Source: an uncultured Planctomycetia bacterium (GTDB taxonomy: Bacteria > Omnitrophota > Gorgyraeia > 2-02-FULL-51-18). Taken from it: 64,000 bases of DNA. The position numbers and the translations under genes are program-made. The stretch spans positions 334,854 to 398,853 of the forward strand of contig CAZSGP010000003.1 in NCBI GenBank assembly GCA_964606485.1, in the 5' to 3' direction. Positions 14,845 to 62,533 of this stretch are shown here, in pieces. The notes below the pieces were generated by a model. The model did no database searches. It saw only the letters and a program-made list of their open reading frames with translations, and was not told the DNA's origin. The first letter of the stretch is position 1; the number at the start of each line of letters is the position of its first letter.

Positions 14845-14926
14845 TGCGGAAGGAGGGATTCGAACCCTCAATCCTTGCGGCACTAGCTTCTGAGACTAGC
14901 GCGTATGCCAATTCCGCCACTTCCGC
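14845..14926 (-). tRNA. tRNA-Leu (anticodon CAG)
   Basis: Manual fold: acceptor GCGGAAG/CTTCCGC, anticodon loop CTCAGAA, long variable arm, T-arm GGTTCGAATCC. CCA is not encoded. Confidence 0.75.
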
Positions 14927-45745: not shown

Positions 45746-46306
45746 TTGCAAATGAAGGGTCTCGGTCAGAAAATCAAAACGCTCCGCAAATTTAAGCGCA
45801 TGACGCTGGTCGAAGTGTCGCAGAAAACGGGCATTGATCCGGCGACGCTGAGCCGCATGGAAAACGGTCGTATGACCGGCACGGTCGATAGCCACTCCCG
45901 GATTGCCGAAGTGTTGGGCATTCGCCTCCCCGATCTCTACGGGGACGTGATTGAGCGCTTAAACCAAGAAAAAGATCAGAAAATCAAACAGAAACTTTCG
46001 GGCTTTTCTCATTCTGACGGAGCCATTGCTGAACTCTTAACCACGTCCGTGATGCAGAAAAAAATGATGCCCACCCTGGTAAAGGTCAAGGGTCGTGGCC
46101 ACACCGAAGGCGAGCAGTACCCCGCTTTTACCGAGCGCTTTGTTTATGTTTTAAAAGGAAAGCTTGAGTGGGCTATCGGAAACGACAAAAGATCACTTAG
46201 CGAAGGCGAAAGTCTTTACTTTGACGCCTCCCAATTTCATCGGGGCACCAATTTACTCGCCACCGAAAGCAAATTTCTTTCGGTGATCACCCCCACCTCA
46301 CTCTAA
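45746..46306 (+). CDS. XRE-family HTH plus cupin-domain transcriptional regulator
   Basis: N-terminal HTH_3 (IKTLRKFKRMTLVEVSQKTGIDPATLSRMENG) and a C-terminal cupin. Confidence 0.75.
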   Translation: MQMKGLGQKIKTLRKFKRMTLVEVSQKTGIDPATLSRMENGRMTGTVDSHSRIAEVLGIRLPDLYGDVIERLNQEKDQKIKQKLSGFSHSDGAIAELLTTSVMQKKMMPTLVKVKGRGHTEGEQYPAFTERFVYVLKGKLEWAIGNDKRSLSEGESLYFDASQFHRGTNLLATESKFLSVITPTSL

Positions 46307-46542
46307 ATAATTATTTTATTTGCGGCGGCCGATTTTTTCGGCGCCAAGCGGATTGTGCTGCAGGAAATTTTTCAGCGGACCGTCAACAGAGCTCTTTGCT
46401 CTCTTAAAGCCTTTGAAAATTCGAAAGAGGCCGTCACTAAAAAACCCGTTCGGCGTCGCCGAGCGGGTGATTTGATACAACTTGTGACGTTTTTTCATAG
46501 TGCTTTAAAAATACATGATCACGCGGAGAAAATCAAGGGGGA

Positions 46543-48651
46543 TCAGCCCCAGGTCGTCGTGACACCGCACCAAATCACATGCGCGTTGTAATCTCCCCCA
46601 TCAAGCCCGCCGCCCGAATAAGAATAAAATGAATAGCGAGGCTCAATCGTAATGCGCGAATTCACAACGTATGTAAAACCGGTGGAAGCATTCATCTCTT
46701 CAAACTCTGCACCGTATGGCAAACTTGCAGAAGAATAATCTAGAAAATTATCAGCAATGGAACATTGGATAAAATTCGTAAACGTCAATTTTTTTGAGAT
46801 CAAAATATTCAGCTGATAATACCCGCCGTACACATCGTTGCTGAGCAATGGGGTCTGTGCAGGGCCCGTGTCAAACTGAACGGGCGTTTCAATGGAAGAA
46901 GTTCTAAAAAAGAGCCCTCCCTTCCCGCGAACCTTTGAATCAAAATTCATTCCGATGTCCAGCGAGTACGTGTTGGAAATAAAGTTGCTGGTTTGAAAGT
47001 TGGATCCGTCAAATACGCTTAAAAAATTGTAGTCTCTTATCCGCAAGCAGTACTTAAACGAAGGGTCAAAAATCCAGAGTCTGCGAATCGCCACCCGCGC
47101 TTTAACTTCATGTGTTTGAATGGCCTGCTCATCGATAAAAGCCGACATAATGCTTGAATTAGTTCCATCCTGGATCTGACGGCCTTTTGTGTGATCGTAC
47201 CCAACGTGATCATCAGAATATTTATACTGACCCGAAAGACTCAAGTTATCCAAAGGAGAAATCTGAAATCCCGGCGCGATAGACCAATCGTTAACACGTG
47301 TCCCGGTTGTCCGATTAACAACATGATCTGTTCCAGTCAAACCTTCCGTCAGATCCAATTGAGTCTGCTCCATTTCAAAATCAGTGTAGAGCGCAGTTCT
47401 AGGAATCCCTTTGTAGCGAATGGATCCCCCTTCGCCCACTCGAATAAGATCTTGGTGGGTACTGCTCTGCCAAATCTCATCAATTAAGCCATCTGGCGCC
47501 ACCCCCGCCTCCTCATCATTTGGCGAACGATCAAAGGGGTACCTGGAAGAGCTCTCCCGACCTGATAATTCCGCTCGAACCTTTGCATCCAGCTGCAAAT
47601 CTTTCAAGGCAATCCACGTTACTCCTCCCGAAAGAATATGCTGGCCCATGGTATTGTTAGCTTCAGCCCCTCGAACCTGACGCGCCTCTCGATAATTGGT
47701 TAAATTTCGATTTTCATCGTATTCATACATGTTCTGTTTATCTTCGTTTCCGACAGCAATGAACCGGTACTGCGCGGAAGTGACCACTTTTTTCTTAAGA
47801 TACGATTTTTCAAGCTTGAGAGCGGTGGTGGCAATTTGGGCTTTTGGATTTTGATACTGGTCACGAATTTTACGAAATGCGGCAAGCTCATTGGGCGTGG
47901 AAAGCCAACGCTCCTCCACCATGAAGCTCGTATCGACAAGTTCTAAACTTTGTTCAGCAGACCACTCAGCTCCCCAAACCACGCCGCTTAAGCGGATATT
48001 GAATGTGTCAGAGGTTTCGTCCAGATTCTTGTAAGTGGGGCTCACATATCTTGTGAGTCCATTTTCGCGAACTCCCGCCCAAGAAACAAGAGACTTAGAG
48101 CCATCCTTTGTGCGGCGCTCGTAGCCGAGCTGAGTCTGAGGTCCGTGCTCACCCAGTTTAAATCCAATCTCGCCTCTCAGATGCTCCACATCCATTTTTA
48201 AATCTTGATCCAGATTAATTTTCTGAAACCTGGAAAACTGAGGCAAACGGCCTCCGGCCGTGTCGTAATAGGATCGGAAATTATTCATATCAATTTTGAC
48301 ATACGAATTTTCCCCTGATTGATATTTTGCATGAGCCTGATAATCATTCTCGTTAAAAAGCACACTCCCCTGGCCTTGAAACTGATTATTTTTCCAGGGG
48401 CTGTAATTGATGCTCACGTCTTTTAGGCCGCCCGAATAGCCGTCCGTCATCCAATTTTGTTGTTTAAATTTACTGGAGCTCTTATCAACGGTTACGTAGC
48501 GACCCGAGTCGGGTATAATTTTTATCTCAGGCACACCACCTTCAACCGCATAGGCCGCGCAAGAAAATGCCACCGTGATAGCGGCCGCTATCAACAGACT
48601 AAGGCTTAGTTGGGATTTAGTATTGCAAGTGATCATCAAAATTTGAACCAT
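46543..48651 (-). CDS. Large outer-membrane beta-barrel, MtrB/PioB-like candidate porin
   Basis: 702 aa, with a signal peptide and Tyr/Gly/Ser/Thr-rich alternating strands throughout. It overlaps the upstream multiheme cytochrome gene by 35 nt. Confidence 0.55.
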   Translation of the reverse strand: MVQILMITCNTKSQLSLSLLIAAAITVAFSCAAYAVEGGVPEIKIIPDSGRYVTVDKSSSKFKQQNWMTDGYSGGLKDVSINYSPWKNNQFQGQGSVLFNENDYQAHAKYQSGENSYVKIDMNNFRSYYDTAGGRLPQFSRFQKINLDQDLKMDVEHLRGEIGFKLGEHGPQTQLGYERRTKDGSKSLVSWAGVRENGLTRYVSPTYKNLDETSDTFNIRLSGVVWGAEWSAEQSLELVDTSFMVEERWLSTPNELAAFRKIRDQYQNPKAQIATTALKLEKSYLKKKVVTSAQYRFIAVGNEDKQNMYEYDENRNLTNYREARQVRGAEANNTMGQHILSGGVTWIALKDLQLDAKVRAELSGRESSSRYPFDRSPNDEEAGVAPDGLIDEIWQSSTHQDLIRVGEGGSIRYKGIPRTALYTDFEMEQTQLDLTEGLTGTDHVVNRTTGTRVNDWSIAPGFQISPLDNLSLSGQYKYSDDHVGYDHTKGRQIQDGTNSSIMSAFIDEQAIQTHEVKARVAIRRLWIFDPSFKYCLRIRDYNFLSVFDGSNFQTSNFISNTYSLDIGMNFDSKVRGKGGLFFRTSSIETPVQFDTGPAQTPLLSNDVYGGYYQLNILISKKLTFTNFIQCSIADNFLDYSSASLPYGAEFEEMNASTGFTYVVNSRITIEPRYSFYSYSGGGLDGGDYNAHVIWCGVTTTWG

Positions 48652-49420
48652 GAACAGCGGTGTGGCAACCGGCGCTGTAGCAGGCTCCCTTATTCATGTG
48701 ATCGGTCGGCAAAACGCCGTGACAAGACCAGCAGGGTAAATTTTTATAGTGGCCTTGGTGAACTCTTCCGCCGATATAAGGAAAGTTGGATTGCGTATGG
48801 CAATTAAGGCAAAGATTGTTGTCGCGAGCCACGAGCATTTTGTCGTTGATGGATCCATGCACGGCGTGGCAGGTCGGACATCCCTCGCGCACGGCTTCGT
48901 GTTCCCACACAAATGGTCCGCGCTGCTCTTTGTGGCATTTAGAGCAAACCTCATTCACGCCTTCTGAGGAGGTCTTGGACCAGGCGGTAACATCGTCTCC
49001 GTGAGCGTCGTGACAATCCGCGCAGCTCATCTTCCCTTCAAGCACAGGGTGATGGGAGGGCAAACGAAATTCCATTTCTTTATCGGAGTGACAGCGGAAA
49101 CAAGCGGATGGGTCTTTGCGCGGATTAGTGATGGCCACGTCTATTCCGCCCCCCTCATCGGCGTGTTTGCTTCCGGGGCCGTGGCACATCTCACAGTCTT
49201 GCGCCTTTACATCGCCCTTGCTTATGGAAATGCGCGCATGAGTAGACCGTTTAAATTTTGCGGTGATCTCTTCGTGGCAACCTTCACAGGTATCCATTCC
49301 CACGTACTCAGCGCCTTCCTGAGAAACTTTTTCGGCGGCCCGGCTTTCTTTTGAAAAAAATGAAGTCCCTGCAAAAAATACAATCGCCACAACTAGACTG
49401 ACTCGGAAATAAATTTTCAT
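48617..49420 (-). CDS. Periplasmic multiheme cytochrome c (8 CxxCH plus one CX4CH)
   Basis: Signal peptide, then CEGCH, CEMCH, CFRCH, CADCH, CSKCH, CPTCH, CLNCH, CWSCH and CYSAGCH; 267 aa. Confidence 0.85.
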   Translation of the reverse strand: MKIYFRVSLVVAIVFFAGTSFFSKESRAAEKVSQEGAEYVGMDTCEGCHEEITAKFKRSTHARISISKGDVKAQDCEMCHGPGSKHADEGGGIDVAITNPRKDPSACFRCHSDKEMEFRLPSHHPVLEGKMSCADCHDAHGDDVTAWSKTSSEGVNEVCSKCHKEQRGPFVWEHEAVREGCPTCHAVHGSINDKMLVARDNNLCLNCHTQSNFPYIGGRVHQGHYKNLPCWSCHGVLPTDHMNKGACYSAGCHTAVHGSNFDDHLQY

Positions 49421-49421
49421 A

Positions 49422-50102
49422 TTAATTCTGCGCCTCGGCGACTATTTGATTAACTTTTTGTTGGTATTCGTCACCGGATATCCTTTTTTCCTTCCACAGC
49501 TGACTCAGCGCGTACACCTTCTTATTTTGTTCGGGCTTCAAGCGACTGGTATCGATTGGCTTTTCAATTGCTTCGCTCGGCTCTGCAGTTTCCTTAGAAA
49601 ACAAAGTGGGCTTGTCTAAATTCATGACTGCCAGCGCAGCGCTTTTTCGTCCGCTCATAAAACCTTCCGGCAAAATTCTCGCAGGATCCGCATCAAACAT
49701 TAGATTTCCCGTTATGATCCACGACCCGCTAACTTGGTAGCACAAAAAACGCCCAAAAATGGGCCCCGCTTCATAGTTTAACTGCAGCAAAACAACTTTG
49801 ACTTTCGCGGAGATGCTAAGCGTGTCGAGCACCTCGTAGCCCACGAAGCCGCCGTACACCGCATGAACCTCTTTAAATAATTCGATCTTTTTTAGAATTT
49901 CCGGATCCGACTGATAGGGGCTTTGCGACAACCATTTGCGGATCGCTTGCTCAGGCCCATCCACGGCGTAGGCGTATAAACCGTCGAGCACAATGGAAGG
50001 TGTTGAGGTGGCTTGCTGTGAGGATTCCTGGGCTCTAACCACACCCGTCGCTACAACATTTAAAAAAGCCATTAAAAAAAATGCAGCGACAAAACGGGCC
50101 AT
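49422..50102 (-). CDS. Secreted protein of unknown function, first gene of the cytochrome/porin operon
   Basis: 226 aa with a signal peptide. Its stop is 2 nt before the cytochrome start. Confidence 0.55.
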   Translation of the reverse strand: MARFVAAFFLMAFLNVVATGVVRAQESSQQATSTPSIVLDGLYAYAVDGPEQAIRKWLSQSPYQSDPEILKKIELFKEVHAVYGGFVGYEVLDTLSISAKVKVVLLQLNYEAGPIFGRFLCYQVSGSWIITGNLMFDADPARILPEGFMSGRKSAALAVMNLDKPTLFSKETAEPSEAIEKPIDTSRLKPEQNKKVYALSQLWKEKRISGDEYQQKVNQIVAEAQN

Positions 50103-50461
50103 GAATCACCTAGTCCTTTTGAAAAGATTACCGTAATTCAGAGCTAGATTATGTGACTTTGGTCACACTAAGGGTTAGTTTAAGAATGCGATGCCCTTTG
50201 CCGCGCGCTTCAAAGAGTCGTCCAGCGCCGCAGTAAGCTTAGCGGCCTTTATCAATTAATCCTTTAATGTTTAACGCTTTTAATTTTATGCCTCGGCGCA
50301 TCACGCGAATATTTTCAACCACTTTCTTATTCATCACCTTTTTTAGAAAAACGGCTAAATAAATTCTGGCATCGGGCAATTTTATGGTAATCATGCCGCT
50401 CTCTCCCTCAACAAAAAGAATGCTCTGAATTGACTAGCGTGTCTACTAGCCTATGATATTT

Positions 50462-50707
50462 TTAAATCTCAGCGACTCGATGAAGAATTTCCGATATAAA
50501 ACTCTGATACTTCACCCCGAGCTTTGAGGCTTTTTGTTTCAAATGTTCCAGATCGCTGCGATTAACACGGATATTCAGCACAGCATCTTTTTTCTTGGAT
50601 TCGATAGCCTGCACAATAGAGGCTAATTCCTTTTGGCTAGCTGGAACAAATTCATGAATAGACCGCTCAATTGCTCGCTCGTCTCTACTAAGCTTTAGGC
50701 TTCTCAT
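50462..50707 (-). CDS. brnA: BrnA-type antitoxin (CopG/RHH-like)
   Basis: 81 aa. It lies 3 nt downstream of brnT. Confidence 0.65.
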   Translation of the reverse strand: MRSLKLSRDERAIERSIHEFVPASQKELASIVQAIESKKKDAVLNIRVNRSDLEHLKQKASKLGVKYQSFISEILHRVAEI

Positions 50708-50710
50708 CTT

Positions 50711-50962
50711 TCACTTCCTCCCGTATCGTTTCATCAAGCTTCTACTTGGATAAATTGTTTTTAAAAAAATAGCTTCCTCATCTTCGACAAATGGAACCGC
50801 CCATAGATAGTTTTTGTATTCATAAACTAAAATACTCTGATGAATGCGATCAGGATGCTTCAAGACTTCCACGAGCTTTGACCGAGTAATTTCTTCAAAT
50901 GAAACACCTCTCGTTTTCTTGAGGCGCTCGCTTTTCAAGGCATTCCAACGAACTTGCTTCAT
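50711..50962 (-). CDS. brnT: BrnT-family (DUF497) ribonuclease toxin
   Basis: 83 aa, with VEVLKHPD...YEYKNYLWAVPFVEDEEAIFLKTIYPSR. Confidence 0.7.
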   Translation of the reverse strand: MKQVRWNALKSERLKKTRGVSFEEITRSKLVEVLKHPDRIHQSILVYEYKNYLWAVPFVEDEEAIFLKTIYPSRSLMKRYGRK

Positions 50963-50986
50963 TTAACCCTACCATTTGTATGCACA

Positions 50987-51000
50987 AATTGTATATACAA
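50987..51000. promoter_or_regulatory. Perfect 14-bp palindrome ATTGTATATACAAT just upstream of brnT
   Basis: It lies ~25 nt upstream of the brnT start codon. Confidence 0.45.
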
Positions 51001-51044
51001 TACATGAGTCTGTCAAGTATCGAAAATTGACGCGTTACAGGTGG

Positions 51045-51248
51045 TTACTTTTTCCGCGTAAATAAAAGATAAATCCCGCCAAAAATAATAAGAAAAAATC
51101 CGACGAGTGAGGTGAGCCGCGAGAGCTCCCGCAAGAGGCCGCCGATGTGGAGTTGCATGAAAATCATGTTCATGACGATGCCGATTGGGAGGAGGTAGAG
51201 GCCGAGTTTGAAGAGTGAGGGTTTTTTCATTTTTGTTTGAGGTGTCAA
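51045..51248 (-). CDS. Small two-TM membrane protein
   Basis: 67 aa, hydrophobic hairpin. Confidence 0.45.
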   Translation of the reverse strand: MTPQTKMKKPSLFKLGLYLLPIGIVMNMIFMQLHIGGLLRELSRLTSLVGFFLIIFGGIYLLFTRKK

Positions 51249-51283
51249 TTGTCAAGGACTGACACGTTTATTGGCATCCAGAT

Positions 51284-51517
51284 TTATGGCTTTCCAAATA
51301 AGCCAACCCACAAAGGATATAAACCCAATAAAATAAAAATAACCGCAATAACTCTTATATTAAAAATAACTTCCTTTTCGGAAGCGGGTTTTAGCCCCTC
51401 TTTTGTTACTCGACCAAATAGCTTCTGATAGAATCCAATATTTAAAAAAATCTTCTTTGGAAAAAGAAATACCAAAACTGAAAACCCTATAAAGATAATC
51501 GAGAAAATGATTGTCAT
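51284..51517 (-). CDS. Small two-TM membrane protein
   Basis: 77 aa. Confidence 0.45.
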   Translation of the reverse strand: MTIIFSIIFIGFSVLVFLFPKKIFLNIGFYQKLFGRVTKEGLKPASEKEVIFNIRVIAVIFILLGLYPLWVGLFGKP

Positions 51518-51587
51518 GCGCTAGGATCTACCATCGTTAAGGTGCGACTCTCTAATCCGACGCTAGTTTTACACATTTCTTATAATC

Positions 51588-52409
51588 TTAATTTATTGGA
51601 ACGCTAGACACTATATCAATCGTATCATTTTCCGAAGCAGCTCTCTTTTTGGACTCAATTATGATTTGCTTCGGTAAAATTAGCGGGCTCTTGGTATCGT
51701 ACAAAACCTGAAAGGATTTATATATTTTCGATCGCGGGTCGAACGTTGTGGTCTTTTTTAAAAGGAACTTTTCAATTGGTAAACGCTCAAACTCGCATGA
51801 GATCACTTCCTGGATCTTATTGTTATTTATCATTTCAATTTTCTCTAACAGAGAATTTTGTTTGAAAAATAGTCTTAAGATCGACTGATGCTGAGAATTA
51901 AGTACATTTAGAACAATTTCATAATCATTAAAACCTAGCTCTCTCACAACCGTCACATTTTTTGAAATAAAAATTTCATCGAAAAGAAATAAATTCGTTT
52001 GCAGGGCATCTCGAATACGGTCCTTGGTATGAATCACCGCTTTAGCCACCATTGCCGTATCCGCTTTAGCCACCATCTCTGGTACGTTATCTGCACGGCT
52101 ATAAAATTGCATGGGACTAACCCATTTAACCTTAAATTTGACTTGCTGGAGCTGCTTATGGGCAATCGGATCTTTTACGCGGGAAACCATCTCATCAAAA
52201 AAGTGCGACTTACATTCAAACTCGGCACCTTTCAAGCCCTGCTCCGATAGATTGTAATATGATGCATTGATCTTAGAAATTTGCTCAGCTGATACCGGGA
52301 CAAAATTCTTACTATCGTCATGTTTATATGAGCATGAGGACATGAAAATGGAGCAAGCTATGAGGAAAATCGGGAGTTTTATTGAAACCGCCATATTAAC
52401 CCTTAACAT
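51588..52409 (-). CDS. Lipoprotein, function unknown
   Basis: Lipobox IFMSSC; 273 aa; low-GC gene. Confidence 0.55.
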   Translation of the reverse strand: MLRVNMAVSIKLPIFLIACSIFMSSCSYKHDDSKNFVPVSAEQISKINASYYNLSEQGLKGAEFECKSHFFDEMVSRVKDPIAHKQLQQVKFKVKWVSPMQFYSRADNVPEMVAKADTAMVAKAVIHTKDRIRDALQTNLFLFDEIFISKNVTVVRELGFNDYEIVLNVLNSQHQSILRLFFKQNSLLEKIEMINNNKIQEVISCEFERLPIEKFLLKKTTTFDPRSKIYKSFQVLYDTKSPLILPKQIIIESKKRAASENDTIDIVSSVPIN

Positions 52410-52479
52410 TTGCTACGATCCTATCGGCCTTTTTATGATTTTTGCGTATCAGAAATAGCCCGCTTGAGATGCCAACCGA

Positions 52480-53175
52480 TTAATTTCTATTATTTTTTGG
52501 AAGAATATATTTTTTAGCGAAACTATCTTGATTTTCATAAGCCATAATTTCGTCTATCTTTCGCTTATATGCAATTTTGTGCTCTTCGATTCGACCTTGA
52601 TGAATGAGCGACTTCTCAATAATTATCGAGATGGAAGCAATCATAGTATTTGAATCCAAGAATATACTCGCATGACCCCCAATAAGCTCGGGAAAGATGA
52701 CTGTTTTAGCAAATTTTCCGTAGTCTAAGATCAGTTGTCCGGGCTCGCCATTATCCAAGTCCATTTTAAGATAGGCTTTTTTAGGAAAACCTAAATTTTT
52801 TACATTCGGTACTATAATGCTATATCCGGTTGGCTGATCACTAACTTTGATATCTATTTCATTTACAACTCCCGATGGGAGACGCTCATTCTGTCGAAAA
52901 CGGAATTTATCGCTTAGATCTATGTTCATTTGACGCGGGGTATTTTTATTTTCGTCACCCTCTATTACATCTGGCTTTTTAGACAGCACAGACTCGTGCG
53001 TAAAGGACGTATAGAGCCTATCTTCATCCTGTTTGAGCCCGTCCAGGAGATCATTTTCTGTATAACCGGCTGAACATATACATCCCATAAGCATAATAAC
53101 TAGGCTAGCGGTAGATAAAAGCTTCCATGCATTAACTTTATTTGTACAATATTTCAAGCAAGTACCTACCATCAA
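52480..53175 (-). CDS. Lipoprotein, function unknown
   Basis: Lipobox LMGC; 231 aa; low-GC gene. Confidence 0.55.
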   Translation of the reverse strand: MMVGTCLKYCTNKVNAWKLLSTASLVIMLMGCICSAGYTENDLLDGLKQDEDRLYTSFTHESVLSKKPDVIEGDENKNTPRQMNIDLSDKFRFRQNERLPSGVVNEIDIKVSDQPTGYSIIVPNVKNLGFPKKAYLKMDLDNGEPGQLILDYGKFAKTVIFPELIGGHASIFLDSNTMIASISIIIEKSLIHQGRIEEHKIAYKRKIDEIMAYENQDSFAKKYILPKNNRN

Positions 53176-53417
53176 TGCATCTCTATTTTTTTAACTTCTG
53201 GTTTTTTCTTTTGATTACTCTCTACCGGCCCAACGTAGGTAAAATTACCAATACGGGTAGCCGATAAATCATTACCGTTTTTTTGATTATCTTTTTCAAC
53301 CTCTTGGGCAAGAATTTTATTTAATTTTTCCCAATCTTTATCTTGCTTGCTGTCAGCCGCCCAGGCCGTAGGTAAAAATATCAAGCTTATCAACATCACC
53401 AAAATTATTTTTTTCAT
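53172..53417 (-). CDS. Small secreted protein
   Basis: 81 aa with a signal peptide. Confidence 0.45.
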   Translation of the reverse strand: MKKIILVMLISLIFLPTAWAADSKQDKDWEKLNKILAQEVEKDNQKNGNDLSATRIGNFTYVGPVESNQKKKPEVKKIEMH

Positions 53418-53463
53418 ATCATACCCTCTTACACTAAATTAACCGTCCTAACGCTACGCCTTA

Positions 53464-53769
53464 CTATCTATAAAAAATGGTTCCCAGATATCCTTTTTTA
53501 AAAAGGTAGCCACAATAACCAAAATTTAAACTTGTAAGAATGAGCAATCCAACCACTTTCCCAGTACTGCTGCTTAAATCCATATTGAAGGATTTTGCCA
53601 GGATTCCCATTACGACCAAGACGACAACCCAAATTGTCAATGCCGTAAAAAAACTTTTCCATCCTTCGAAAAATCGAATAGCTCCTAACAAGGCGGTGCT
53701 CCCAAAAAAGAGAATAAGATTTATAGTTTCGATTATTTCCATACTATCCCCAAATTCTGCACCACACAC
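53464..53769 (-). CDS. Small membrane protein
   Basis: ~91-101 aa with three hydrophobic segments. Confidence 0.45.
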   Translation of the reverse strand: MCGAEFGDSMEIIETINLILFFGSTALLGAIRFFEGWKSFFTALTIWVVVLVVMGILAKSFNMDLSSSTGKVVGLLILTSLNFGYCGYLFKKGYLGTIFYR

Positions 53770-53993
53770 TTATTTTAATTCAACCACTTAACTCCAACAA
53801 TTCTTAAACTAGCCTACCTTCTCAGTGGCTTTTCTTAGAGGTCTTAAATAGCCAAATCCCAAGACCCAGAAAAACTAATCCAAGAATTAAGCTTTGAGTT
53901 TTGAGCGTGTGGAAACGGATTAAAAAAATGGCTACGGCGAGAAAGTGCATCACGGAAAAAGCTATAAGAAAAAGGCTTAAGACCCGCCTAAAA

Positions 53994-54455
53994 CTAATCA
54001 ATGAGTTTTATCCAGCCATAACAAATACCTGGGTTGTTTTTAAAAAATGCTCCTGACGCATCCATTTCCGATGGAACACTTTCCTCATCAGGGGTATATT
54101 TTAAAATTGCGTGTAATTCATTATCCTGATTGACTAATTTGTTTTCAGTGCCTGTTAATTCTAGAAAGAATGGATCCTTACCTTCGTAATCATTAATCGC
54201 AGGTAAATAAGTAAGCAAATAAGTCGTCGAATATTTTAACCTTGCTTCATCGCTCAAGCCATCTCTATCTAATAGCAGCGGCTCATTCAGCCTAATAACA
54301 TACCCCCAAGATCCAAAAAGGAAACGCCTGACAAAAATCCCATTGAGCGTGGGCAGAAAAAGCTTAATGCCTTTTCTCTGATGAATTTCGTAGTCATAGG
54401 AATGTAGGCGAATTTGGACCTTCCTGCCAAGGACGTTATCTGAAAAGTAATTCAT
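53994..54455 (-). CDS. Hypothetical 153-aa protein immediately downstream of giant paralog 1 (candidate cognate immunity/partner)
   Basis: It starts 9 nt after the giant ORF's stop. Confidence 0.5.
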   Translation of the reverse strand: MNYFSDNVLGRKVQIRLHSYDYEIHQRKGIKLFLPTLNGIFVRRFLFGSWGYVIRLNEPLLLDRDGLSDEARLKYSTTYLLTYLPAINDYEGKDPFFLELTGTENKLVNQDNELHAILKYTPDEESVPSEMDASGAFFKNNPGICYGWIKLID

Positions 54456-54464: not shown

Positions 54465-57400
54465 CTACGTTAAGTCATCCAAAAAAGTAAACACAACATT
54501 TCGACTATCTATGTAACTCTGTTCTACAAAAATTTGAAGACCACCACCAAGACCGTTATCTCCGGCAGCCCTGCCGACGAAAAGTCGAACGCTGTCATCA
54601 AGCTCGACACTCGCCACTTTTGTGGCTTGATTAAACAGATTACCAGTTTCGTCGTATAGATTTAAAAATTGTCGTGCTGTATCGGTTGAATGTGCCCATT
54701 GCCCTGTCGTCAAAAACCTCCCCTCCAATGGCGAAGCCGCCCCATCATAAACTCGATACAAGTTCAACCTACCTTGCAGTCCTAACCTAGCTCTCAACTC
54801 ACCCGCTGTATACGTCTCAAACGCTCCAACTCCGGACTGAACCGATTCAAGAGTATTACCACCAAAAGTTTCAGCGATATCTCCGGAAAGTCGAAACGCA
54901 GGATTATTAGCTGCGGCAATTTCAGTAGTTGGACTTATCGATAAAAACCCCGCCTGCCCTAATTCCAGATTAACCGCACGCAAACCTGACGTAATGCCAC
55001 TAAGAGCTTCACCCACTCGAGGAACAAAACCAATTTCATGAAGAAGTTCTGCACCACCAACTGCATTGCCAACGGTGGAGAGAACACCCAATGCAATTTT
55101 TAATGAGCGATCAAAAGCTGAGAGTTGTTGGCCGCTTTGACTATCCACGCCATAAATTCCCTCAAGGAGAGGCGTGTATCCAACAAGATCTCCGACGGTT
55201 CCATGAACCGCCCAAAGCATTGCTTCGTTATCCGTGTATCCAAAAAGGGCTGATTTAAAGTAATTATATCGTGCTTGTGTTGCTTGGACCAGTTGAGCCG
55301 CTTGATTTTGTGCCAATATGGTTAGCATGTAATTACCAGGTGTCACGAGCGGCAAAACCTGCATCAAGCCTTGCTCCGTTAGCGGGTTAACGTTTCCAAA
55401 CCCGTACGCCAGTAATCTCCTAGCGGTCTCACTCAGAATTTGCTGAACCGAATAACTCCCGTCATTATTTCTTGAAAGCCTAAACCCCTCTCCACTTTGG
55501 AGCTGAGTCGGCAATATTGCGTCGAAGGGATCCATTGGCTGATAGAAAGTATACTCATTAATCGCCCCGGAATTTAACTCCAACCTAAAAATACCGTTAT
55601 AATTCGATTGAATGGTTCCGCTGTCGACTTGGCCTTGAGCATTAAAATTAATCGCTTGCTGATTGCTCGCTGCTGTTACTTCAAAACGTCTTGCTCCGCT
55701 CTGATCCAAGACTTCAATGTTATCTGCAAGGCCATTTGAGATGGTATAAACAGCTACGCTGCCATCACCCAGAGTTTCGGTTTGTCGTCCGGTTAAGAAT
55801 CCCCAATTTTCTATCTGATCCACTCCAAAGTGTCCGGCAATTTCTTTTCCTGCACCGCTCACACTCGTCACGTCCGTTAAGCTGGAAGTTGTTCCCACAC
55901 ACTCCCCTGTCGACGTACAAAACTGAGCTTCGATCTGTCCGTTCTTCTGAACTTGCTGGTAGTCGTGTCGATCGATCTTGTCCTGGAACCATTCGCCTAC
56001 GGATCTAAAGAGTTGGCTAGTGATAGGATTTACAGTTCTTAGAATCGACGAGATTGAGTCTTGGGTAAAAATATTCGCCGCATACGTATCAATCGCTTGC
56101 GCTAGACCTCTTTGTTGAATAATCGTCGAAAAATCTGTCACTCTTTGAAGATATTGAGCTTGAGAATAAGAATCCGTCCCAGTTCCCCCGAGTCTTGCGA
56201 CATTGAGGGCCGAGTCTCTGAACCCTTGGTATATTCCTCCAAAAATATCATGGTTGGGTGAAAGAGCTCCTTCTATCGCTCCTGTTATTGCTCTGGATGT
56301 GAGAGCTCCAAGAAGCGGATCCATGTTTTGAGTGGCATAGCTGATTCCAAGATTCGTCACCCCACGCAGTAGCCCGTCTTGAACAGACCGAATAATATTT
56401 TCTCCAAGAGTCTTTGCTTCGGTGTGAGTGGGGTTAAGGGCGCTTGAGACAGTGGTGGTGAGTAGCGCATTGATTCTAGGATCAAGTCCAATGGATGCTC
56501 CCAGTCTATCGATGCCGTAGATCGTTAAGTCTCTTGGGAGATTGGAAGCGATGGTTTGAATAGACCCATTGATGTCTCCGGTCCATGCTCCGTCAAAAAG
56601 AGGAGCTGCGGTAAGTGAAATTACCCCTGCAAGTTTAGGGTCTAATCCTGCGTGAACAAGGAGATCTTTTGATCCTGCGACAAGCGTGTTCTTTAGTCCA
56701 TCAAAGAAGAAGTTTGAGAAGTCCATACCGGTAGCGGTGAAGCTTCCGTGGATGCCGCCTGTCACAAAGCTTGAGATGAGGTTTGAGATTCGAGGGTCTA
56801 CTCCGAGCGCGTCAAGGCCTTTAGAGACGGCGTAGTTGACACCAATAGTGATGACGTTATGAAAGATTGCCTCTGAGGCAGAGACTTTAAGCGTTCCTGC
56901 GGCGACACCTTGAGGAGCTCCTAGAGAGAAGAGACTAGCTAGTCCATGAAAGAGTGTCGTTCCAACGTACTGAATGCCTTGGAAGATTTGGCCTGCGAAG
57001 GCTCCGACTTGAGTGAGGAATCCTCCGATGGCTTGGCCTAAGAGAGTCAGAGACTGAGCGATGATGCTGCCGATGCTTGCAAGAATAGCTCCAATACTCG
57101 AAAGAATCACGCCTACCGTTGTGGCAATCGAGACGATGGCCCCAATGATGGCAGGAATTAGGAAGAAACAGCCGCCTTTCAGTTGGCGAGCTTCAAAGAA
57201 AGACAGAATGTGCGATGTGGGGCTTGTGACTTGCGGAATAACCGTTGATTTTGCAAGGGTGTATCCCTTCCAAGCACTCAGAAACTCACTCTTTGAAAGC
57301 GTGTGGACACTTCCGTCGGTTTCAACGAGAGTGACTTGGGTGGAGGTTTGTTGAAATGCAGTATTTGGAAATAAATTAACGCTCGGAGCTTCGAATGAAC

Positions 57401-57467
57401 GGGCGGATTGAATTAAATAAAGATTGAGGTGAAGAAATACGAGGAGAGCTGAGAGAGATTTTTTAAG
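54465..57467 (-). CDS. Giant paralog 1 of the G(L/V)DP-repeat family, with a unique C-terminal domain
   Basis: The track ORF is 54465..57110 (GTG start). The homologous N-terminal 119 codons continue in frame up to 57467 with no ATG, GTG or TTG; the equivalent position of copy 2's TTG start is CTT. A strong AGGAGG SD lies 9 nt upstream. Confidence 0.6.
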   Translation of the reverse strand, partial: LKKSLSALLVFLHLNLYLIQSARSFEAPSVNLFPNTAFQQTSTQVTLVETDGSVHTLSKSEFLSAWKGYTLAKSTVIPQVTSPTSHILSFFEARQLKGGCFFLIPAIIGAIVSIATTVGVILSSIGAILASIGSIIAQSLTLLGQAIGGFLTQVGAFAGQIFQGIQYVGTTLFHGLASLFSLGAPQGVAAGTLKVSASEAIFHNVITIGVNYAVSKGLDALGVDPRISNLISSFVTGGIHGSFTATGMDFSNFFFDGLKNTLVAGSKDLLVHAGLDPKLAGVISLTAAPLFDGAWTGDINGSIQTIASNLPRDLTIYGIDRLGASIGLDPRINALLTTTVSSALNPTHTEAKTLGENIIRSVQDGLLRGVTNLGISYATQNMDPLLGALTSRAITGAIEGALSPNHDIFGGIYQGFRDSALNVARLGGTGTDSYSQAQYLQRVTDFSTIIQQRGLAQAIDTYAANIFTQDSISSILRTVNPITSQLFRSVGEWFQDKIDRHDYQQVQKNGQIEAQFCTSTGECVGTTSSLTDVTSVSGAGKEIAGHFGVDQIENWGFLTGRQTETLGDGSVAVYTISNGLADNIEVLDQSGARRFEVTAASNQQAINFNAQGQVDSGTIQSNYNGIFRLELNSGAINEYTFYQPMDPFDAILPTQLQSGEGFRLSRNNDGSYSVQQILSETARRLLAYGFGNVNPLTEQGLMQVLPLVTPGNYMLTILAQNQAAQLVQATQARYNYFKSALFGYTDNEAMLWAVHGTVGDLVGYTPLLEGIYGVDSQSGQQLSAFDRSLKIALGVLSTVGNAVGGAELLHEIGFVPRVGEALSGITSGLRAVNLELGQAGFLSISPTTEIAAANNPAFRLSGDIAETFGGNTLESVQSGVGAFETYTAGELRARLGLQGRLNLYRVYDGAASPLEGRFLTTGQWAHSTDTARQFLNLYDETGNLFNQATKVASVELDDSVRLFVGRAAGDNGLGGGLQIFVEQSYIDSRNVVFTFLDDLT
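56398..57036. repeat. ~640-bp block 100% identical to 60343..60980 (gene-conversion tract between paralogs 1 and 2)
   Basis: The two blocks match exactly. The flanking sequence is ~90% identical. Confidence 0.8.
57117..57370. repeat. Second near-identical block (3 SNPs) shared with 61063..61320
   Basis: Seen in sequence. Confidence 0.75.
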
Positions 57468-57485
57468 CGTGGTGATCCTCCTTAT

Positions 57486-58457
57486 TTATTCTTCATACCA
57501 AGAAGCGGATGCATCCGAGGAGTAACCCAAACCAGGCCCGAGGTAAGCGGGGGTTGTAATTTGCCATTCTCTATTGCCTTCCAAAGATTGGATAAAAATA
57601 GCCGAGCCGCCCGAAGGGACCGGCTTAGAGTAATATATTTTTTTTCCATCTTTCGAGAGGCCAATGTTCAGATAGAAGCCTTGCGCTTCTTTGATGATTT
57701 CTATTTTGCCCGTCTCGGTATCAAACTTACCAAGAATTCCGAAACGGTCGTTGAAGTGGGTGCCGTCATTTTGATAATTAGCGTGTATAACCGCATACCT
57801 GTTATCAGTAAGCCAACCAGCAATGCCAACGTTATAATTCAGTTTTCTGGTTTCTTGATTTCGAAAATTCTGAATCAAAACAAACGTGTCACCCTCAACC
57901 CCGAGCGTTGGCACAACAACATAAGCTGCTTTTTCTCTATTCCGACTGACCTTGATTTGATATACCTCGTAGCCTTTAGGAATCTCATATAATTTTCTTG
58001 ATTCTCCTGTTTGAAGATTATGGAGTATAACAGTGGCAGTTTTTTTGTCATCCGTCCAACCTTGGGCGTAAACAATATTATCTTCGTCTACCCAGTCTGA
58101 AGCATTAGGATAATACTCTGTTTTGACTTGCTGTAAAACATCTCCATTTTCATTTAGGATGTAAAGGGCATTATGCTCGTGAGCAGCGAGGATCTTCTGG
58201 CCGCTCGGAGAAAAAAGAGCTTCCGCTATCAAAAGACCCGAACCAAGTTCTTTGATTTGGCCATTCTTAAATAAATAAACCTCGGAGGACGTCTTGCTGG
58301 TGGGGTTTCTTTTAGCATCTATAAGCCATTTACCAGAAAATTGAACTGATGAAGAAGCTTCGCTTGAACGAGTTTTGGTCTGTGGTTCCTCCGAAGCATA
58401 GCAACCTGATATTGTGAGATTTAAAAAAATAAGTGCTACCGAAAAAAGTTTGCTCAT
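57486..58457 (-). CDS. TolB-like PD40 beta-propeller lipoprotein
   Basis: Lipobox LTISGC and PD40-like repeats (SPSGQKILAA, SKDGKKIYYS); 323 aa. Confidence 0.65.
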   Translation of the reverse strand: MSKLFSVALIFLNLTISGCYASEEPQTKTRSSEASSSVQFSGKWLIDAKRNPTSKTSSEVYLFKNGQIKELGSGLLIAEALFSPSGQKILAAHEHNALYILNENGDVLQQVKTEYYPNASDWVDEDNIVYAQGWTDDKKTATVILHNLQTGESRKLYEIPKGYEVYQIKVSRNREKAAYVVVPTLGVEGDTFVLIQNFRNQETRKLNYNVGIAGWLTDNRYAVIHANYQNDGTHFNDRFGILGKFDTETGKIEIIKEAQGFYLNIGLSKDGKKIYYSKPVPSGGSAIFIQSLEGNREWQITTPAYLGPGLGYSSDASASWYEE

Positions 58458-61411
58458 AACTGTCCGATGTAGTTAGTATAGGGCATCACACTGTTAACTC
58501 CACCTAGGAGAGCTGAGGAGACGTCGCCAGCACTTAGCGGTTGAGCCACGCCTTCCAATGATTTGGCGACGCTTATCTGTATAGCTTGATTAATAAGAGC
58601 ACTGTTTGATTGTAAAAGATTGTTAAACGATGGGGCATTGTTATTATTATTTTGAGTCGACAACTGAAGGTCAGTGGTTAGAATGCAAAGGCCCTTCGCT
58701 TGATCAACACGCGTTGTTCTAATTCGGACAATATCTTTATCAGAAATAACATCATGCTCATAAGACACACGAACTTTTAATTTAAAATCCGACGTCTGAA
58801 CTGATGCAAAGATTCCACCGCCGCCTGAGACACTGGCTTGTAGATTGGGTCCATTTACCCGCGTACTCCCCCTAAGGGTAGAAAGATCCATGGATGTACC
58901 ACCTTCTATTCTTCCGTTTCCACTTAAACCTGCAATAACCTGGAGATTATTAAACAACGTCGCTTTAAGGCCAACGGAGATATCGGTTCCAATCCTATAA
59001 CCATTGGAGTCTCCAATCACCGCGCGAACCATCTCCCCTTGGTTTAGATTGATGAATCCGAAGAGATCTTGATTGGCGCTTTGTCCATCCATAAACACGT
59101 GCCCGTCTTCACGGCTAAATCGAACTTCGCTCTGACCTATCTGCGTAGATTCTGTGCGAACCGATTGGACAAGAGCGAGAAGAGGTTGGCGACCAAAGAA
59201 TCGCTGCATTTGCACACCATAATCTTTGACCTTATCGAGTGTTTGTTGTGCGTTTATATAGCCCTGCTGTTGTAACTTTTGAAGAATTTGCTCGGGTGTT
59301 AAGGGCTGAGGATCAGAAAACTGATCCTGTAGGTTTGGATTTATTTCATTGGCATCAAAAAGCTGGTCAAGTATTGGAGCGGACTGCCTCATGAGATCAT
59401 TTTTAAAATTAATGAACATTCGAGCAGCGTCAGAGATGCCTGTGAAGCTTATCGCATAATTATTTTGAAGCTGGTCAAAATAAATCCTAGTCCCCCCAAA
59501 TTCCTGACCAACAACCACTCCATCATGGACAGAGAATGATCTGTTTTGAGCGTCTAGTTGACTTAGGGTTGCATCCACATACTCTCCGAAAGAATTAAAC
59601 GTATTATACCCTCCCTGAGAATTTGGTGTAACAACCAAAATGGTCTTCCCTGTTGAATCCTTTATTTCGACGTAAGTCTGCTGTCCATTTTGAATGCGTT
59701 GGAATTGCTCATGGGAATTAAATGGTGATTGGGCGCGAGCGAGAGATCCCTCTATCATTCCCCAGCTATTGGTATCTTGGACATCCACGCCAGAGCTTGA
59801 GATGGATTTGTAGAGGTCTTTGTCTGTTACGCCCAAAAGATGAGTGTCGTTATATTCAATCCCGATGGAGTTATCATCCAGGAGGCTTAAAGATTTAAGC
59901 GCTTGATTCCCCCGCTGAATCGTCTGCTCTTTTCCTTGAGCAATTCTTGTTTGAATCGCATTTTGGATACTTCCATAGGTACGGACGATGGATTCAACGG
60001 AATCAGCTTGAAAAATATTCGCCGCATAAGTATCGATAGCTTGAGCGAGGCCTCTCTGCTGGATAATCGTCGAAAAATCTGTCACTCTTTGAAGATATTG
60101 AGCTTGAGCATAAGAATCATTTCCCGTTCCCCCGAGCCTTGCGACATTGAGGGCTGAATCTCTAAACCCTTGGTAGATTCCTTGGAAAATATCATGGTTT
60201 GGTGAAAGAGCTCCTTCAATCGCTCCTGTAATGGCTCTTGAAGTTAACGCTCCAAGAAGCGGATCCATGTTTTGAGTGGCGTAGCTAATTCCAAGATTCG
60301 TCACTCCACGCAGCAACCCATCCTGCACCGACCGAATAATATTCTCTCCAAGAGTCTTTGCTTCGGTGTGAGTGGGGTTAAGGGCGCTTGAGACAGTGGT
60401 GGTGAGTAGCGCATTGATTCTAGGATCAAGTCCAATGGATGCTCCCAGTCTATCGATGCCGTAGATCGTTAAGTCTCTTGGGAGATTGGAAGCGATGGTT
60501 TGAATAGACCCATTGATGTCTCCGGTCCATGCTCCGTCAAAAAGAGGAGCTGCGGTAAGTGAAATTACCCCTGCAAGTTTAGGGTCTAATCCTGCGTGAA
60601 CAAGGAGATCTTTTGATCCTGCGACAAGCGTGTTCTTTAGTCCATCAAAGAAGAAGTTTGAGAAGTCCATACCGGTAGCGGTGAAGCTTCCGTGGATGCC
60701 GCCTGTCACAAAGCTTGAGATGAGGTTTGAGATTCGAGGGTCTACTCCGAGCGCGTCAAGGCCTTTAGAGACGGCGTAGTTGACACCAATAGTGATGACG
60801 TTATGAAAGATTGCCTCTGAGGCAGAGACTTTAAGCGTTCCTGCGGCGACACCTTGAGGAGCTCCTAGAGAGAAGAGACTAGCTAGTCCATGAAAGAGTG
60901 TCGTTCCAACGTACTGAATGCCTTGGAAGATTTGGCCTGCGAAGGCTCCGACTTGAGTGAGGAATCCTCCGATGGCTTGGGTCAATAAAGTGAGTGACTG
61001 GGCGATAATAGCGCCGATACTGGCGATAATCGTTCCAATTGCATAAATAATGGATCCTATTGTTGTGGCAATCGAGACGATGGCTCCAATGATGGCAGGA
61101 ATCAGGAAGAAACAGCCGCCTTTTAGTTGGCGAGCTTCAAAGAAAGACAGAATGTGCGATGTGGGGCTTGTGACTTGCGGAATAACCGTTGATTTTGCAA
61201 GGGTGTATCCCTTCCAAGCACTCAGAAACTCACTCTTTGAAAGCGTGTGGACACTTCCGTCGGTTTCAACGAGAGTGACTTGGGTGGAGGTTTGTTGAAA
61301 TGCAGTATTTGGAAATAAATTGATCTGTGGGGCTTCGAAGGATTGAGCGGACGAAAGAAGAATTAAATTAAGGTGGAGAAAAACTAGGAGAGCGGAGAGA
61401 AATTTTTTCAA
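58454..61411 (-). CDS. Giant paralog 2 of the G(L/V)DP-repeat family (985 aa)
   Basis: TTG start with no SD, and a signal-peptide-like N-terminus. A glycine-zipper hydrophobic segment is followed by repeats (LGVDPRISNL / AGLDPKLAGV / IGLDPRINAL / MDPLLGAL) and a unique C-terminal half. Confidence 0.7.
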   Translation of the reverse strand: MKKFLSALLVFLHLNLILLSSAQSFEAPQINLFPNTAFQQTSTQVTLVETDGSVHTLSKSEFLSAWKGYTLAKSTVIPQVTSPTSHILSFFEARQLKGGCFFLIPAIIGAIVSIATTIGSIIYAIGTIIASIGAIIAQSLTLLTQAIGGFLTQVGAFAGQIFQGIQYVGTTLFHGLASLFSLGAPQGVAAGTLKVSASEAIFHNVITIGVNYAVSKGLDALGVDPRISNLISSFVTGGIHGSFTATGMDFSNFFFDGLKNTLVAGSKDLLVHAGLDPKLAGVISLTAAPLFDGAWTGDINGSIQTIASNLPRDLTIYGIDRLGASIGLDPRINALLTTTVSSALNPTHTEAKTLGENIIRSVQDGLLRGVTNLGISYATQNMDPLLGALTSRAITGAIEGALSPNHDIFQGIYQGFRDSALNVARLGGTGNDSYAQAQYLQRVTDFSTIIQQRGLAQAIDTYAANIFQADSVESIVRTYGSIQNAIQTRIAQGKEQTIQRGNQALKSLSLLDDNSIGIEYNDTHLLGVTDKDLYKSISSSGVDVQDTNSWGMIEGSLARAQSPFNSHEQFQRIQNGQQTYVEIKDSTGKTILVVTPNSQGGYNTFNSFGEYVDATLSQLDAQNRSFSVHDGVVVGQEFGGTRIYFDQLQNNYAISFTGISDAARMFINFKNDLMRQSAPILDQLFDANEINPNLQDQFSDPQPLTPEQILQKLQQQGYINAQQTLDKVKDYGVQMQRFFGRQPLLALVQSVRTESTQIGQSEVRFSREDGHVFMDGQSANQDLFGFINLNQGEMVRAVIGDSNGYRIGTDISVGLKATLFNNLQVIAGLSGNGRIEGGTSMDLSTLRGSTRVNGPNLQASVSGGGGIFASVQTSDFKLKVRVSYEHDVISDKDIVRIRTTRVDQAKGLCILTTDLQLSTQNNNNNAPSFNNLLQSNSALINQAIQISVAKSLEGVAQPLSAGDVSSALLGGVNSVMPYTNYIGQL
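60343..60980. repeat. Partner of the 100%-identical block 56398..57036
   Basis: Seen in sequence. Confidence 0.8.
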
Positions 61412-61420
61412 AAAATAATT

Positions 61421-62533
61421 TTACGCAATCCAATCCGCAAATTCATCGGTAGCCCAGGCTCGGGGATGATTTATCGGATATCTTTTATCCCGCTGAGCCG
61501 GGGTTAGCCGAGCTTCTCCGGTACCGTCGAGATTCATGACGAATAGTTCGGCGCCCGTAAAAGGGAAATGGTGCCTATGGGAACTAAACACGATCTGTTT
61601 ACCGTCTGGAGAAAAAACGGGATAACGGTTATGCCATTTGTTTGGGCTAATTGGCCAGTCTTTGCCAGTTCTTACGTCGTATAGACAAATTTGCAGTCCA
61701 TCGGCAAATTCCCTACCACCACGATAATGCCTGGACGCAAAAACAATATAATTGCCATCAGGAGACCAGGCGGGATCATGTGCGTAATCAAGAATACGCT
61801 TCAAACCGGTTCCGTCTGCGTTTACAACGCTGATCGCTCCACCCTCATCAATAGCTATTCTTTTCCCGTCCGAAGATATTCTGAATAATATGATTCTGTT
61901 CATTCCCAGCATAGATTCTCGGTCTGTGATCCGCACCTCATTACCGGATTCAATATCATGCCGATAAATATTATCAGCCCCTCCGCCTGAGGGATTTTTA
62001 TCAACAGCTGCGTAGTAGACAGACTTTCCATCGGGAGACCAAACAACACTTTCAGCGCTCTTCTTTGTTTTGATACGGTATCTAATGGATCCTTCAAGAG
62101 CTAGGACGGGCGGGTCTTGATCTTCTTCATTAGTTTCACATAAGATACTTTTCCCATCCGGCGACCATCGAGGCTCTCTGAACTTTCCAAAACCACCGCC
62201 AAGCATCCCTTCAAGAGGTTTTAGTCCTTCGGGAGTTGTTTCGGCGAGGCTCCCGCCGTCGGCTATTTTTTTCATTTGTCCGTTTTCTAATACCCAAATC
62301 TCGGATGCTGAACCCGAACGATCACTTTGAAAAACAATTTTTCCGGGGACTTTTACTAGAGCATCTGAGTTAGATGTTTTTATGGGCTTAGGTGGCATGG
62401 GAGTATCTTTCTTTAGCTGGGAGAATATAAAAACTCCGAGAATAAGTAGAGCGGCTATGCTAAGTAGTGGGAGTATGGAGGATTTCTTCATTGATGTAGT
62501 GACGCAGTTCGTTGGGGTCAATTTTATTGTCAT
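61421..62533 (-). CDS. TolB-like PD40 beta-propeller protein with an N-terminal membrane anchor
   Basis: Repeats WSPDGKS (twice), WSPDGNY, FSPDGKQ; 370 aa. Confidence 0.65.
   Translation of the reverse strand: MTIKLTPTNCVTTSMKKSSILPLLSIAALLILGVFIFSQLKKDTPMPPKPIKTSNSDALVKVPGKIVFQSDRSGSASEIWVLENGQMKKIADGGSLAETTPEGLKPLEGMLGGGFGKFREPRWSPDGKSILCETNEEDQDPPVLALEGSIRYRIKTKKSAESVVWSPDGKSVYYAAVDKNPSGGGADNIYRHDIESGNEVRITDRESMLGMNRIILFRISSDGKRIAIDEGGAISVVNADGTGLKRILDYAHDPAWSPDGNYIVFASRHYRGGREFADGLQICLYDVRTGKDWPISPNKWHNRYPVFSPDGKQIVFSSHRHHFPFTGAELFVMNLDGTGEARLTPAQRDKRYPINHPRAWATDEFADWIA

Follow-up and report, generated by a model that had tools for sequence, protein, structure and literature searches.

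A divergent MtrAB-like cytochrome and barrel pair from an Omnitrophota genome, a probable conduit for extracellular electron transfer

With a porin-cytochrome conduit a diderm bacterium can respire minerals or oxidise Fe(II), and can trade electrons with an electrode or a partner cell; in genomes such conduits are usually found via models of MtrA/MtoA and MtrB/PioB. Does a locus encode such a conduit when the models for its barrel half are silent? The question is raised by a minus-strand operon of three genes at positions 46543-50102 of a stretch of 64,000 nucleotides (nt) on contig CAZSGP010000003.1, from an uncultured member of the Omnitrophota; this whole stretch, 64 kb long, is called the window below. 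An earlier note, made from the sequence alone, had described there a secreted protein of 226 amino acids (aa), a 267-aa multiheme cytochrome c and a 702-aa barrel-like protein, and had likened the last two to the MtrAB, MtoAB and PioAB conduits. The three open reading frames (ORFs) were confirmed, with the leader gene at 49422-50102, the cytochrome gene at 48617-49420 and the barrel gene at 46543-48651, and all three products begin with hydrophobic signal-like segments. The likeness has also held up: given the MtrA homology, a 26-strand MtrB-like barrel and near-invariable gene linkage, the cytochrome and barrel genes very probably encode a two-component trans-outer-membrane conduit of the MtrAB/MtoAB/PioAB superfamily. 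Its established parts are the homologies of both proteins, the strand number of the barrel, the near-obligate pairing and the co-variation of types; we infer that the cytochrome sits inside the barrel, and likewise how it is oriented and which redox partners it has. The pair belongs to a distinct and large lineage that goes unrecognised by standard annotation models and is sister to the MtrAB system of Shewanella.

The cytochrome and the barrel

The cytochrome carries eight CxxCH motifs (at residues 45, 76, 107, 133, 159, 181, 204 and 230) and a ninth motif, CYSAGCH of the Cx4CH form, at residue 247, the very set counted in the earlier note. Among all window ORFs of at least 50 aa no other carries a CxxCH, so that the clustering of motifs is not a composition effect, and the 12 histidines outside the motifs could serve the nine hemes as distal ligands. 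The top NCBIfam match is NF041028, the GSU2203-family decaheme cytochromes (180 bits, cutoff 325), and Pfam also finds NrfB-like, c7 and c3 modules. The best solved relative among PDB chains is 6r2q_A, "Structure of the Mtr complex" (E 1.5e-31), a chain that we take to be MtrA, the molecule label in the file being odd. Photobacterium MtrA, from a genuine mtrCAB cluster on a chromid with PF22113 in its MtrC and PF11854 in its MtrB (E 9e-153), is 36% identical over 167 residues (E 3e-29). The kinship to MtrA/DmsE considered in the earlier note is therefore upheld as homology to MtrA, but not as membership in the DmsE family: the score against TIGR03508 is 161.8 bits (E 2e-47), below the cutoff of 192.2, and the window cytochrome has nine motifs, whereas the TIGR03508 group is decaheme with ten CxxCH.

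Aligned with MtrA, the family to which the cytochrome belongs keeps hemes 1, 2 and 5-10 in order and lacks the segment with hemes 3 and 4, and its conserved Cx4CH motif falls on MtrA heme 10. Among the 120 best homologues, 86 of the 88 short forms have seven CxxCH and a C-terminal Cx4CH (usually CFSAGCH), and all 32 long forms add an N-terminal CKTCH. No short form but the window cytochrome has a ninth motif, a CWSCH held in a 17-residue insert, YKNLPCWSCHGVLPTDH (about residues 225-241), which is found in this copy only and comes after the equivalent of MtrA heme 9 and before that of heme 10. By analogy with 6R2Q, the insert would lie near the outward end of the heme wire. Close homologues bear the names Candidatus Omnitrophota or Omnitrophica. 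As far as the sequences go, the phylum assignment is owed mainly to these names: the GcvP subunit encoded in the window has its best matches among 185,579 species representatives in one Omnitrophota and one Planctomycetia genome at no more than 62-63% identity, which suggests a divergent relative of the Omnitrophota. On these alignments the cytochrome is a homologue in the MtrA/DmsE superfamily, of an octaheme lineage, with a ninth heme apparently gained in the window copy.

The AlphaFold2 model of the barrel (predicted local distance difference test, pLDDT, 71; predicted template-modelling score 0.63) has 26 β-strands over residues 42-700, after a signal helix, which bears out the barrel fold proposed earlier; the same number has been reported for MtrB, MtoB and PioB (PMC10654088). 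When this model was searched against the PDB with Foldseek, the top match was MtrB (6r2q_B, E 5.6e-11, template-modelling scores 0.60/0.64), at a structure-based identity of about 13%. TonB-dependent receptors came next with scores of about 0.4, and 22-strand receptors of this kind were the best generic barrels in the fold searches. Profile comparison points the same way. With hhalign, an 82-sequence profile of the new barrel family was matched to a 17-sequence MtrB/PioB profile, made of barrels that follow metagenomic decaheme cytochromes plus Photobacterium MtrB, at 99.7% (score 223.6, E 9.6e-26) over 615 co-linear columns, essentially the whole barrel; the controls gave 29% (score 42.7) with the template reversed and 10% (score 36.5) with the query reversed. 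An alignment of the family profile with the single MtrB sequence (57%) was out of register and was not used. In a sample of 60 members of the family, PF11854 was touched by two (best E 2.4e-5), TIGR03509 by one and NF041027 by eight, sparse cross-matches that agree with remote MtrB/PioB homology; NF041027 is the GSU2204 family, labelled as an MtrB/PioB-family barrel in a table of one paper (PMC13188914). By profile and model, then, the 702-aa protein is homologous to MtrB/PioB, remotely but over its full length; it lies outside current family models and would form the outer-membrane sheath of the conduit. It is no periplasmic repeat protein, and a porin partner does exist for the cytochrome family, although the earlier note had raised the opposite of each as a doubt.

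When 1.84 billion cluster representatives were searched exhaustively with a HMMER profile, 1,166 barrel relatives came out at E<=1e-3, counted as cluster representatives at 50% identity, of which 522 reach E<=1e-30; the family is mostly 670-730 aa long. The impression from a word-indexed search that the barrel is almost an orphan, with five relatives, was an artefact of sensitivity. The barrel (P0276) is filed under a 41-aa representative (P0277) in the clustering at 90% identity, and the barrel's own absence from the word-indexed results may be due to this. A peptide-pattern scan, which reaches close relatives only, found no barrel relative in 185,579 species representatives.

The genes of the two proteins are almost always found together. 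Every barrel relative with genomic context has a Paired_CXXCH cytochrome of 257-382 aa directly upstream, and a cytochrome-seeded metagenome scan gave a further view in 80 loci (L089-L168). In the part of this set with octaheme-type cytochromes, that is seven CxxCH plus Cx4CH (L089-L129), a barrel of the new family is the next gene downstream in 33 of the 34 evaluable loci, and none of the downstream barrels matches the MtrB/PioB profile. In the remainder (L130-L168) all cytochromes have ten CxxCH and are followed by barrels of the MtrB/PioB type, which give only marginal matches to the new-family profile (L151, 6e-6; L162, 2e-7). Cytochrome type and barrel type co-vary, as is expected if they are two halves of one complex. 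Three loci (L092, L099 and L110) carry tandem duplicated cytochrome-barrel pairs. The junction between the two genes is tight as well. The overlap of 35 nt reported in the earlier note is right when counted from the first barrel ATG, and becomes 20 nt if the barrel starts at Met6 (48636), a residue that lines up with the start of most homologues; Met6 is the likely start, with a signal peptide to around AYA35. One related locus, L086, has the identical 20-nt overlap, whereas other relatives show a gap of 13-29 nt and no overlap.

Electron path, direction and alternatives

How might the pair work? The nonaheme cytochrome would leave the cytoplasm by the Sec route, mature in the periplasm and be threaded into the 26-strand barrel along its lumen, where the chain of bis-His hemes would act as an insulated wire linking the periplasm with the cell surface. 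A surface decaheme lipoprotein of the MtrC/OmcA type was found neither in the window nor in L001, L004, L085, L086 and L087, whereas the control locus L088 (Photobacterium mtrCAB) has its MtrC-type cytochrome. Since none is encoded nearby, the outermost hemes, namely the Cx4CH heme equivalent to MtrA heme 10 and the extra heme inserted just before it, would themselves pass electrons to, or take them from, redox species outside the cell, soluble or colloidal, candidates being chelated Fe, humics, the surfaces of minerals or a partner cell; MtoAB and PioAB are arranged in this way.

Several results weigh against this reading. In a check that the earlier note had suggested, the barrel gave no match to PF11854 at E<=1 (gathering score 23 bits), and it has none in NCBIfam, TIGR03509 included; its sole Pfam match, to the generic OMP_b-brl, is below threshold (E 0.022), whereas Photobacterium MtrB scores 510 bits against PF11854. 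In view of this miss, the homology claimed here is at the superfamily level only and does not extend to membership in PF11854. Nor was MtrB found when the barrel, as a single sequence or as profiles of 6 and 82 sequences, was searched against PDB chains. In all its 64 kb the window has neither an ImcH-like gene nor one for a monoheme cytochrome c, nor does it encode any other cytochrome, and the insertion of the cytochrome in the barrel is drawn by analogy.

The proteins might instead form no conduit at all, the cytochrome being a soluble electron carrier (NrfB/DmsE-like) in the periplasm that serves reductases there, and the barrel a common type of porin or uptake channel for solutes that happens to share the operon. 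The NrfB-like, c7 and c3 modules of the cytochrome and the want of a significant curated-family match for the barrel would fit such an arrangement, as would the periplasmic role also proposed for MtrA (PMC11492766). However, it would leave aside the pairing in 33 of 34 loci, the switch of barrel type with cytochrome type, the tight or overlapping junctions and the full-length remote homology to MtrB/PioB with its reversed controls, and the barrel has the 26 strands of the MtrA-holding MtrB, MtoB and PioB (PMC10654088), where the generic matches have 22; we therefore consider it very unlikely. Hardly any weight can be given to a Geobacter-type Pcc/Ext complex (OmaB/OmbB/OmcB-like) of an origin independent of Mtr, taken here by its definition as an octaheme periplasmic cytochrome, a porin-like protein of roughly 20 strands and an outer-surface lipoprotein cytochrome, the OmaB/OmbB sequences lying outside the comparison. 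The baseline of eight hemes in the family is indeed the count of OmaB/OmaC (PMC4245776), the common neighbour ImcH is a Geobacter-type quinol oxidase, and large 11-13-heme cytochromes stand near some relatives. Yet the cytochrome aligns heme for heme with MtrA, and its best scores are with the families of DmsE and GSU2203; the barrel, a homologue of MtrB/PioB, is one of 26 strands, and no OmcB-like outer cytochrome is found in the window.

If the pair is a trans-outer-membrane conduit, in which direction would electrons flow? The earlier note had left Fe(II) oxidation and metal reduction side by side, and the neighbours of the pair in related loci point to outward flow rather than Fe(II) oxidation. 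We tallied 47 octaheme-type loci including the window, 25 of them at least 7 kb long. A NapC/NirT-related, ImcH-like cytochrome of ~498 aa recurs in 14-16 and a monoheme cytochrome c of ~111 aa in 13 of these loci; further cytochromes of 9-13 hemes are found in about 7, ResB/CcsA in 6, Rieske plus cytochrome b in 4 and a NiFe hydrogenase in 2. The window itself has no member of this set. The ImcH-like gene of L085 (positions 10217-11713 of that locus) has counterparts in L004, L087, L089, L093, L094, L097, L099, L108, L112, L114, L116, L117 and L119. Its 498-aa product has a hydrophobic N-terminal region, CGTMCH (CX3CH) at residue 132, CxxCH at 157, 206, 312, 429, 450 and 489, and a weak NrfH/NapC-type match. 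The published signature of ImcH is a length of 495-519 aa, three N-terminal transmembrane helices and a membrane-adjacent CX3CH followed by six CX2CH (PMC6295460); judged by motifs and length the L085 protein fits it, and the name ImcH-like rests on this signature. ImcH homologues have been reported in Candidatus Omnitrophica, and the family, so far seen in Fe(III) reducers only, has been interpreted as a quinol oxidase (PMC6295460). The 2018 genomic survey did not find mtrAB or mtoAB adjacent to imcH (PMC6295460), an adjacency that was presumably missed because the present barrel is not recognised as MtrB.

The other direction, electron uptake by oxidation of Fe(II) or minerals in the manner of MtoAB/PioAB, would feed NirK and, via quinol, the quinol-dependent nitric oxide reductase qNOR. 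Both enzymes, as the earlier note had claimed, are encoded in the window: nirK at 1530-2645 passes the cutoff of TIGR02376 (311.7 against 296.3 bits), it is followed by a gene for a 228-aa CarboxypepD_reg-like protein (841-1527), and the N-terminus of qNOR (~215 aa at about 1-660, running off the window start) matches solved qNOR structures at E 5.5e-57. The three genes form a single co-directional cluster on the minus strand (1-2645), which lies 44-48 kb from the conduit operon. Some 1.5 kb downstream of the barrel, L086 has a close homologue of NirK (E 9e-167) and its CarboxypepD_reg partner, followed by NrfH/NrfA, in L087 NnrS and a sulfite/nitrite-reductase-like gene lie upstream, and the order in L004 (cytochrome, barrel, monoheme c, NapC/NirT-type) resembles mtoAB-mtoD-cymA (gene set per PMC10654088). 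The pair is also, like MtoAB/PioAB, a two-component system without an MtrC-like surface cytochrome, and this absence, together with the nitrogen-oxide reductases in the genome and in L086, makes inward transfer plausible. Yet NirK stands beside the cytochrome/barrel pair in one of 46 related loci, L086, which makes the adjacency a lead and not an association, and the recurrent inner-membrane partner resembles the quinol oxidase of Fe(III) reducers (PMC6295460). Of the coupling of iron redox chemistry to nitrogen-oxide respiration put forward in the earlier note, the presence of nirK and the qNOR gene is borne out, but their link to the conduit is weak. Nothing in the sequence fixes the direction of the electrons. 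Because of the ImcH-like quinol oxidase and monoheme cytochrome c beside the relatives we lean slightly towards outward flow over uptake that feeds periplasmic reductases such as NirK, and regard the full uptake scheme as a serious possibility, with a chance clearly below even. CarboxypepD_reg-like proteins seem to keep company with copper enzymes, since homologues follow the NirK-like gene in L086 and stand beside COX2 in L087; another occurs in L089.

Operon ends and surroundings

The leader gene is separated from the cytochrome ATG by a 1-nt spacer and on this ground is probably co-transcribed with it. The secreted protein described in the earlier note does have a signal-like N-terminal helix, but it is not a conserved part of the conduit system: the 226-aa protein is an orphan, with no match in Pfam and NCBIfam at E<=1, no homologue in any of the 46 related loci and a cluster of its own among ~15 billion sequences. 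It has one histidine, one cysteine and no heme motif, and its single-sequence structure model (pLDDT 52) is too poor for a fold search.

At the other end of the operon, ~80 nt 3' of the barrel stop, a hairpin with a T-run (46450-46462, minus strand) matches the terminator consensus only and is the probable end of the transcription unit; terminator-like sites in the region are no more numerous than in shuffled sequence. No sigma-70-like promoter was seen on the minus strand 5' of the operon, where scan counts equal those of shuffles, and no Rfam RNA element was found near it. The operon has a GC content of 0.474, which matches the 0.465 of the window. A convergent gene on the plus strand (45746-46306) encodes an XRE-type helix-turn-helix and cupin transcriptional regulator (Pfam HTH_3 and Cupin_2), a possible local regulator that is present in the window only among the 47 loci, as is a 372-aa putative outer-membrane protein near the operon.

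On this side, too, the segment 43277-45613 of the minus strand holds the gene of a 390-aa FecR-domain protein with a Gly/Pro-rich tail and weak similarity to the Leptospira adhesins Lsa33/LipL45, followed by that of the 372-aa possible outer-membrane protein and then by VTT, OEP and AcrB efflux genes; a FecR-domain gene is also found near the cytochrome/barrel pair in L085. Directly 5' of the operon, positions 50103-54000 are low in GC (0.38 against 0.465 for the window), contain a pair of the CopG-antitoxin type (50462-50962), besides three ORFs of 273, 231 and 153 aa for which Pfam gives no match, and may be an inserted island. Beyond it runs a series of large co-directional ORFs on the minus strand (54465-63971; 881, 323, 985, 370 and at least 503 aa), of which the 370-aa one alone has a Pfam match, to PD40 β-propeller repeats. 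Elsewhere the minus strand carries a tmRNA gene (11788-12176) with tag peptide AKNTNLNVVRIPFAGNMALPLAA and a tRNA-Leu(CAG) gene (14844-14926).

Meaning and relation to known conduits

We found no description in the literature of the octaheme/Cx4CH lineage, its strict pairing with a barrel missed by PF11854, its linkage to ImcH or the nine-heme variant, nor of a cytochrome/barrel module in the Omnitrophota, in whose metagenome-assembled genomes (Omnitrophica) FeGenie has flagged "iron genes" (PMC8478452). A broader reading, which we offer tentatively and rate as less likely than not, is that the pair represents a third major and widespread conduit lineage, missed by standard markers, and that the ninth heme of the window copy faces outward and takes the place of a surface cytochrome. 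Such a third lineage would consist of an octaheme cytochrome and a divergent 26-strand barrel, often with the genes of an ImcH-like quinol oxidase and a monoheme cytochrome c beside theirs; it would count no fewer than 1,166 clusters at 50% identity and have members among the Omnitrophota and among lineages of soil and peat. Tools that depend on PF11854/TIGR03509 would then under-call extracellular electron transfer in uncultured phyla, and the ninth heme would lengthen the wire past the end of the barrel, possibly to reach a host or partner cell. Since the barrel is invisible to both models, surveys that require an MtrB match would miss these organisms. The recurrent neighbourhood suggests a complete quinol-to-surface pathway that would join a Geobacter-type inner-membrane module to a Shewanella-type outer-membrane one, and for the Omnitrophota, an uncultured phylum, the conduit would be a concrete, testable respiratory trait.

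Mtr-like clusters for extracellular electron transfer have been described in uncultured phyla, namely Acidobacteriota and Verrucomicrobiota, where a divergent porin and an MtrA-like cytochrome of 8-13 hemes are syntenic and were recognised by structure (bioRxiv 10.64898/2026.05.27.727921). Some distant relatives of the window pair resemble them, by description only, in coming from soil and peat metagenomes and in their system II (ResB/CcsA) maturation genes; Omnitrophota, ImcH and MtrB are not mentioned there. GSU2203 (OmcK) and GSU2204 of Geobacter sulfurreducens, whose genes are up-regulated with hematite and magnetite (PMC4070692), are linked to the window pair through NF041028, the cytochrome's top NCBIfam family. 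The likeness is limited: the cytochrome stays at 180 bits under a cutoff of 325 and GSU2203 is decaheme, the window barrel does not match NF041027, and the CXXCH or selenocysteine feature of the GSU2204 family is absent from it.

The Shewanella MtrCAB complex (6R2Q) supplies the best solved matches, MtrA and MtrB, and shares the order of cytochrome then barrel; two distant family members (P0004 and P0005) even have a large cytochrome, a small cytochrome and a barrel in succession, like mtrC-mtrA-mtrB. It differs from the window pair, which is without a decaheme lipoprotein of the MtrC/OmcA type and stands at the identities given above (about 13% for the barrel on structure, 36% over 167 residues for the cytochrome). 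MtrB of gammaproteobacterial metal reducers also carries an N-terminal CxxC, a motif that the 702-aa barrel lacks throughout.

Against MtoAB of Sideroxydans lithotrophicus and PioAB of Rhodopseudomonas palustris, with their ten hemes, the octaheme lineage has eight and the window copy nine, MtrA hemes 3 and 4 being deleted; the terminal motif is Cx4CH, and the barrel is missed by PF11854 and TIGR03509. The inner-membrane partner of the relatives is ImcH-like, with three transmembrane helices and CX3CH plus six CxxCH, and not the tetraheme CymA, and the host belongs to the Omnitrophota instead of the Pseudomonadota. Yet these two systems share with the window pair the gene of an MtrA-family cytochrome directly upstream of that of a 26-strand barrel of about 700-800 aa and the lack of a dedicated MtrC-type surface cytochrome, and the monoheme cytochrome c and NapC/NirT-related inner-membrane cytochrome found beside relatives of the pair are like MtoD and CymA/ImoA.

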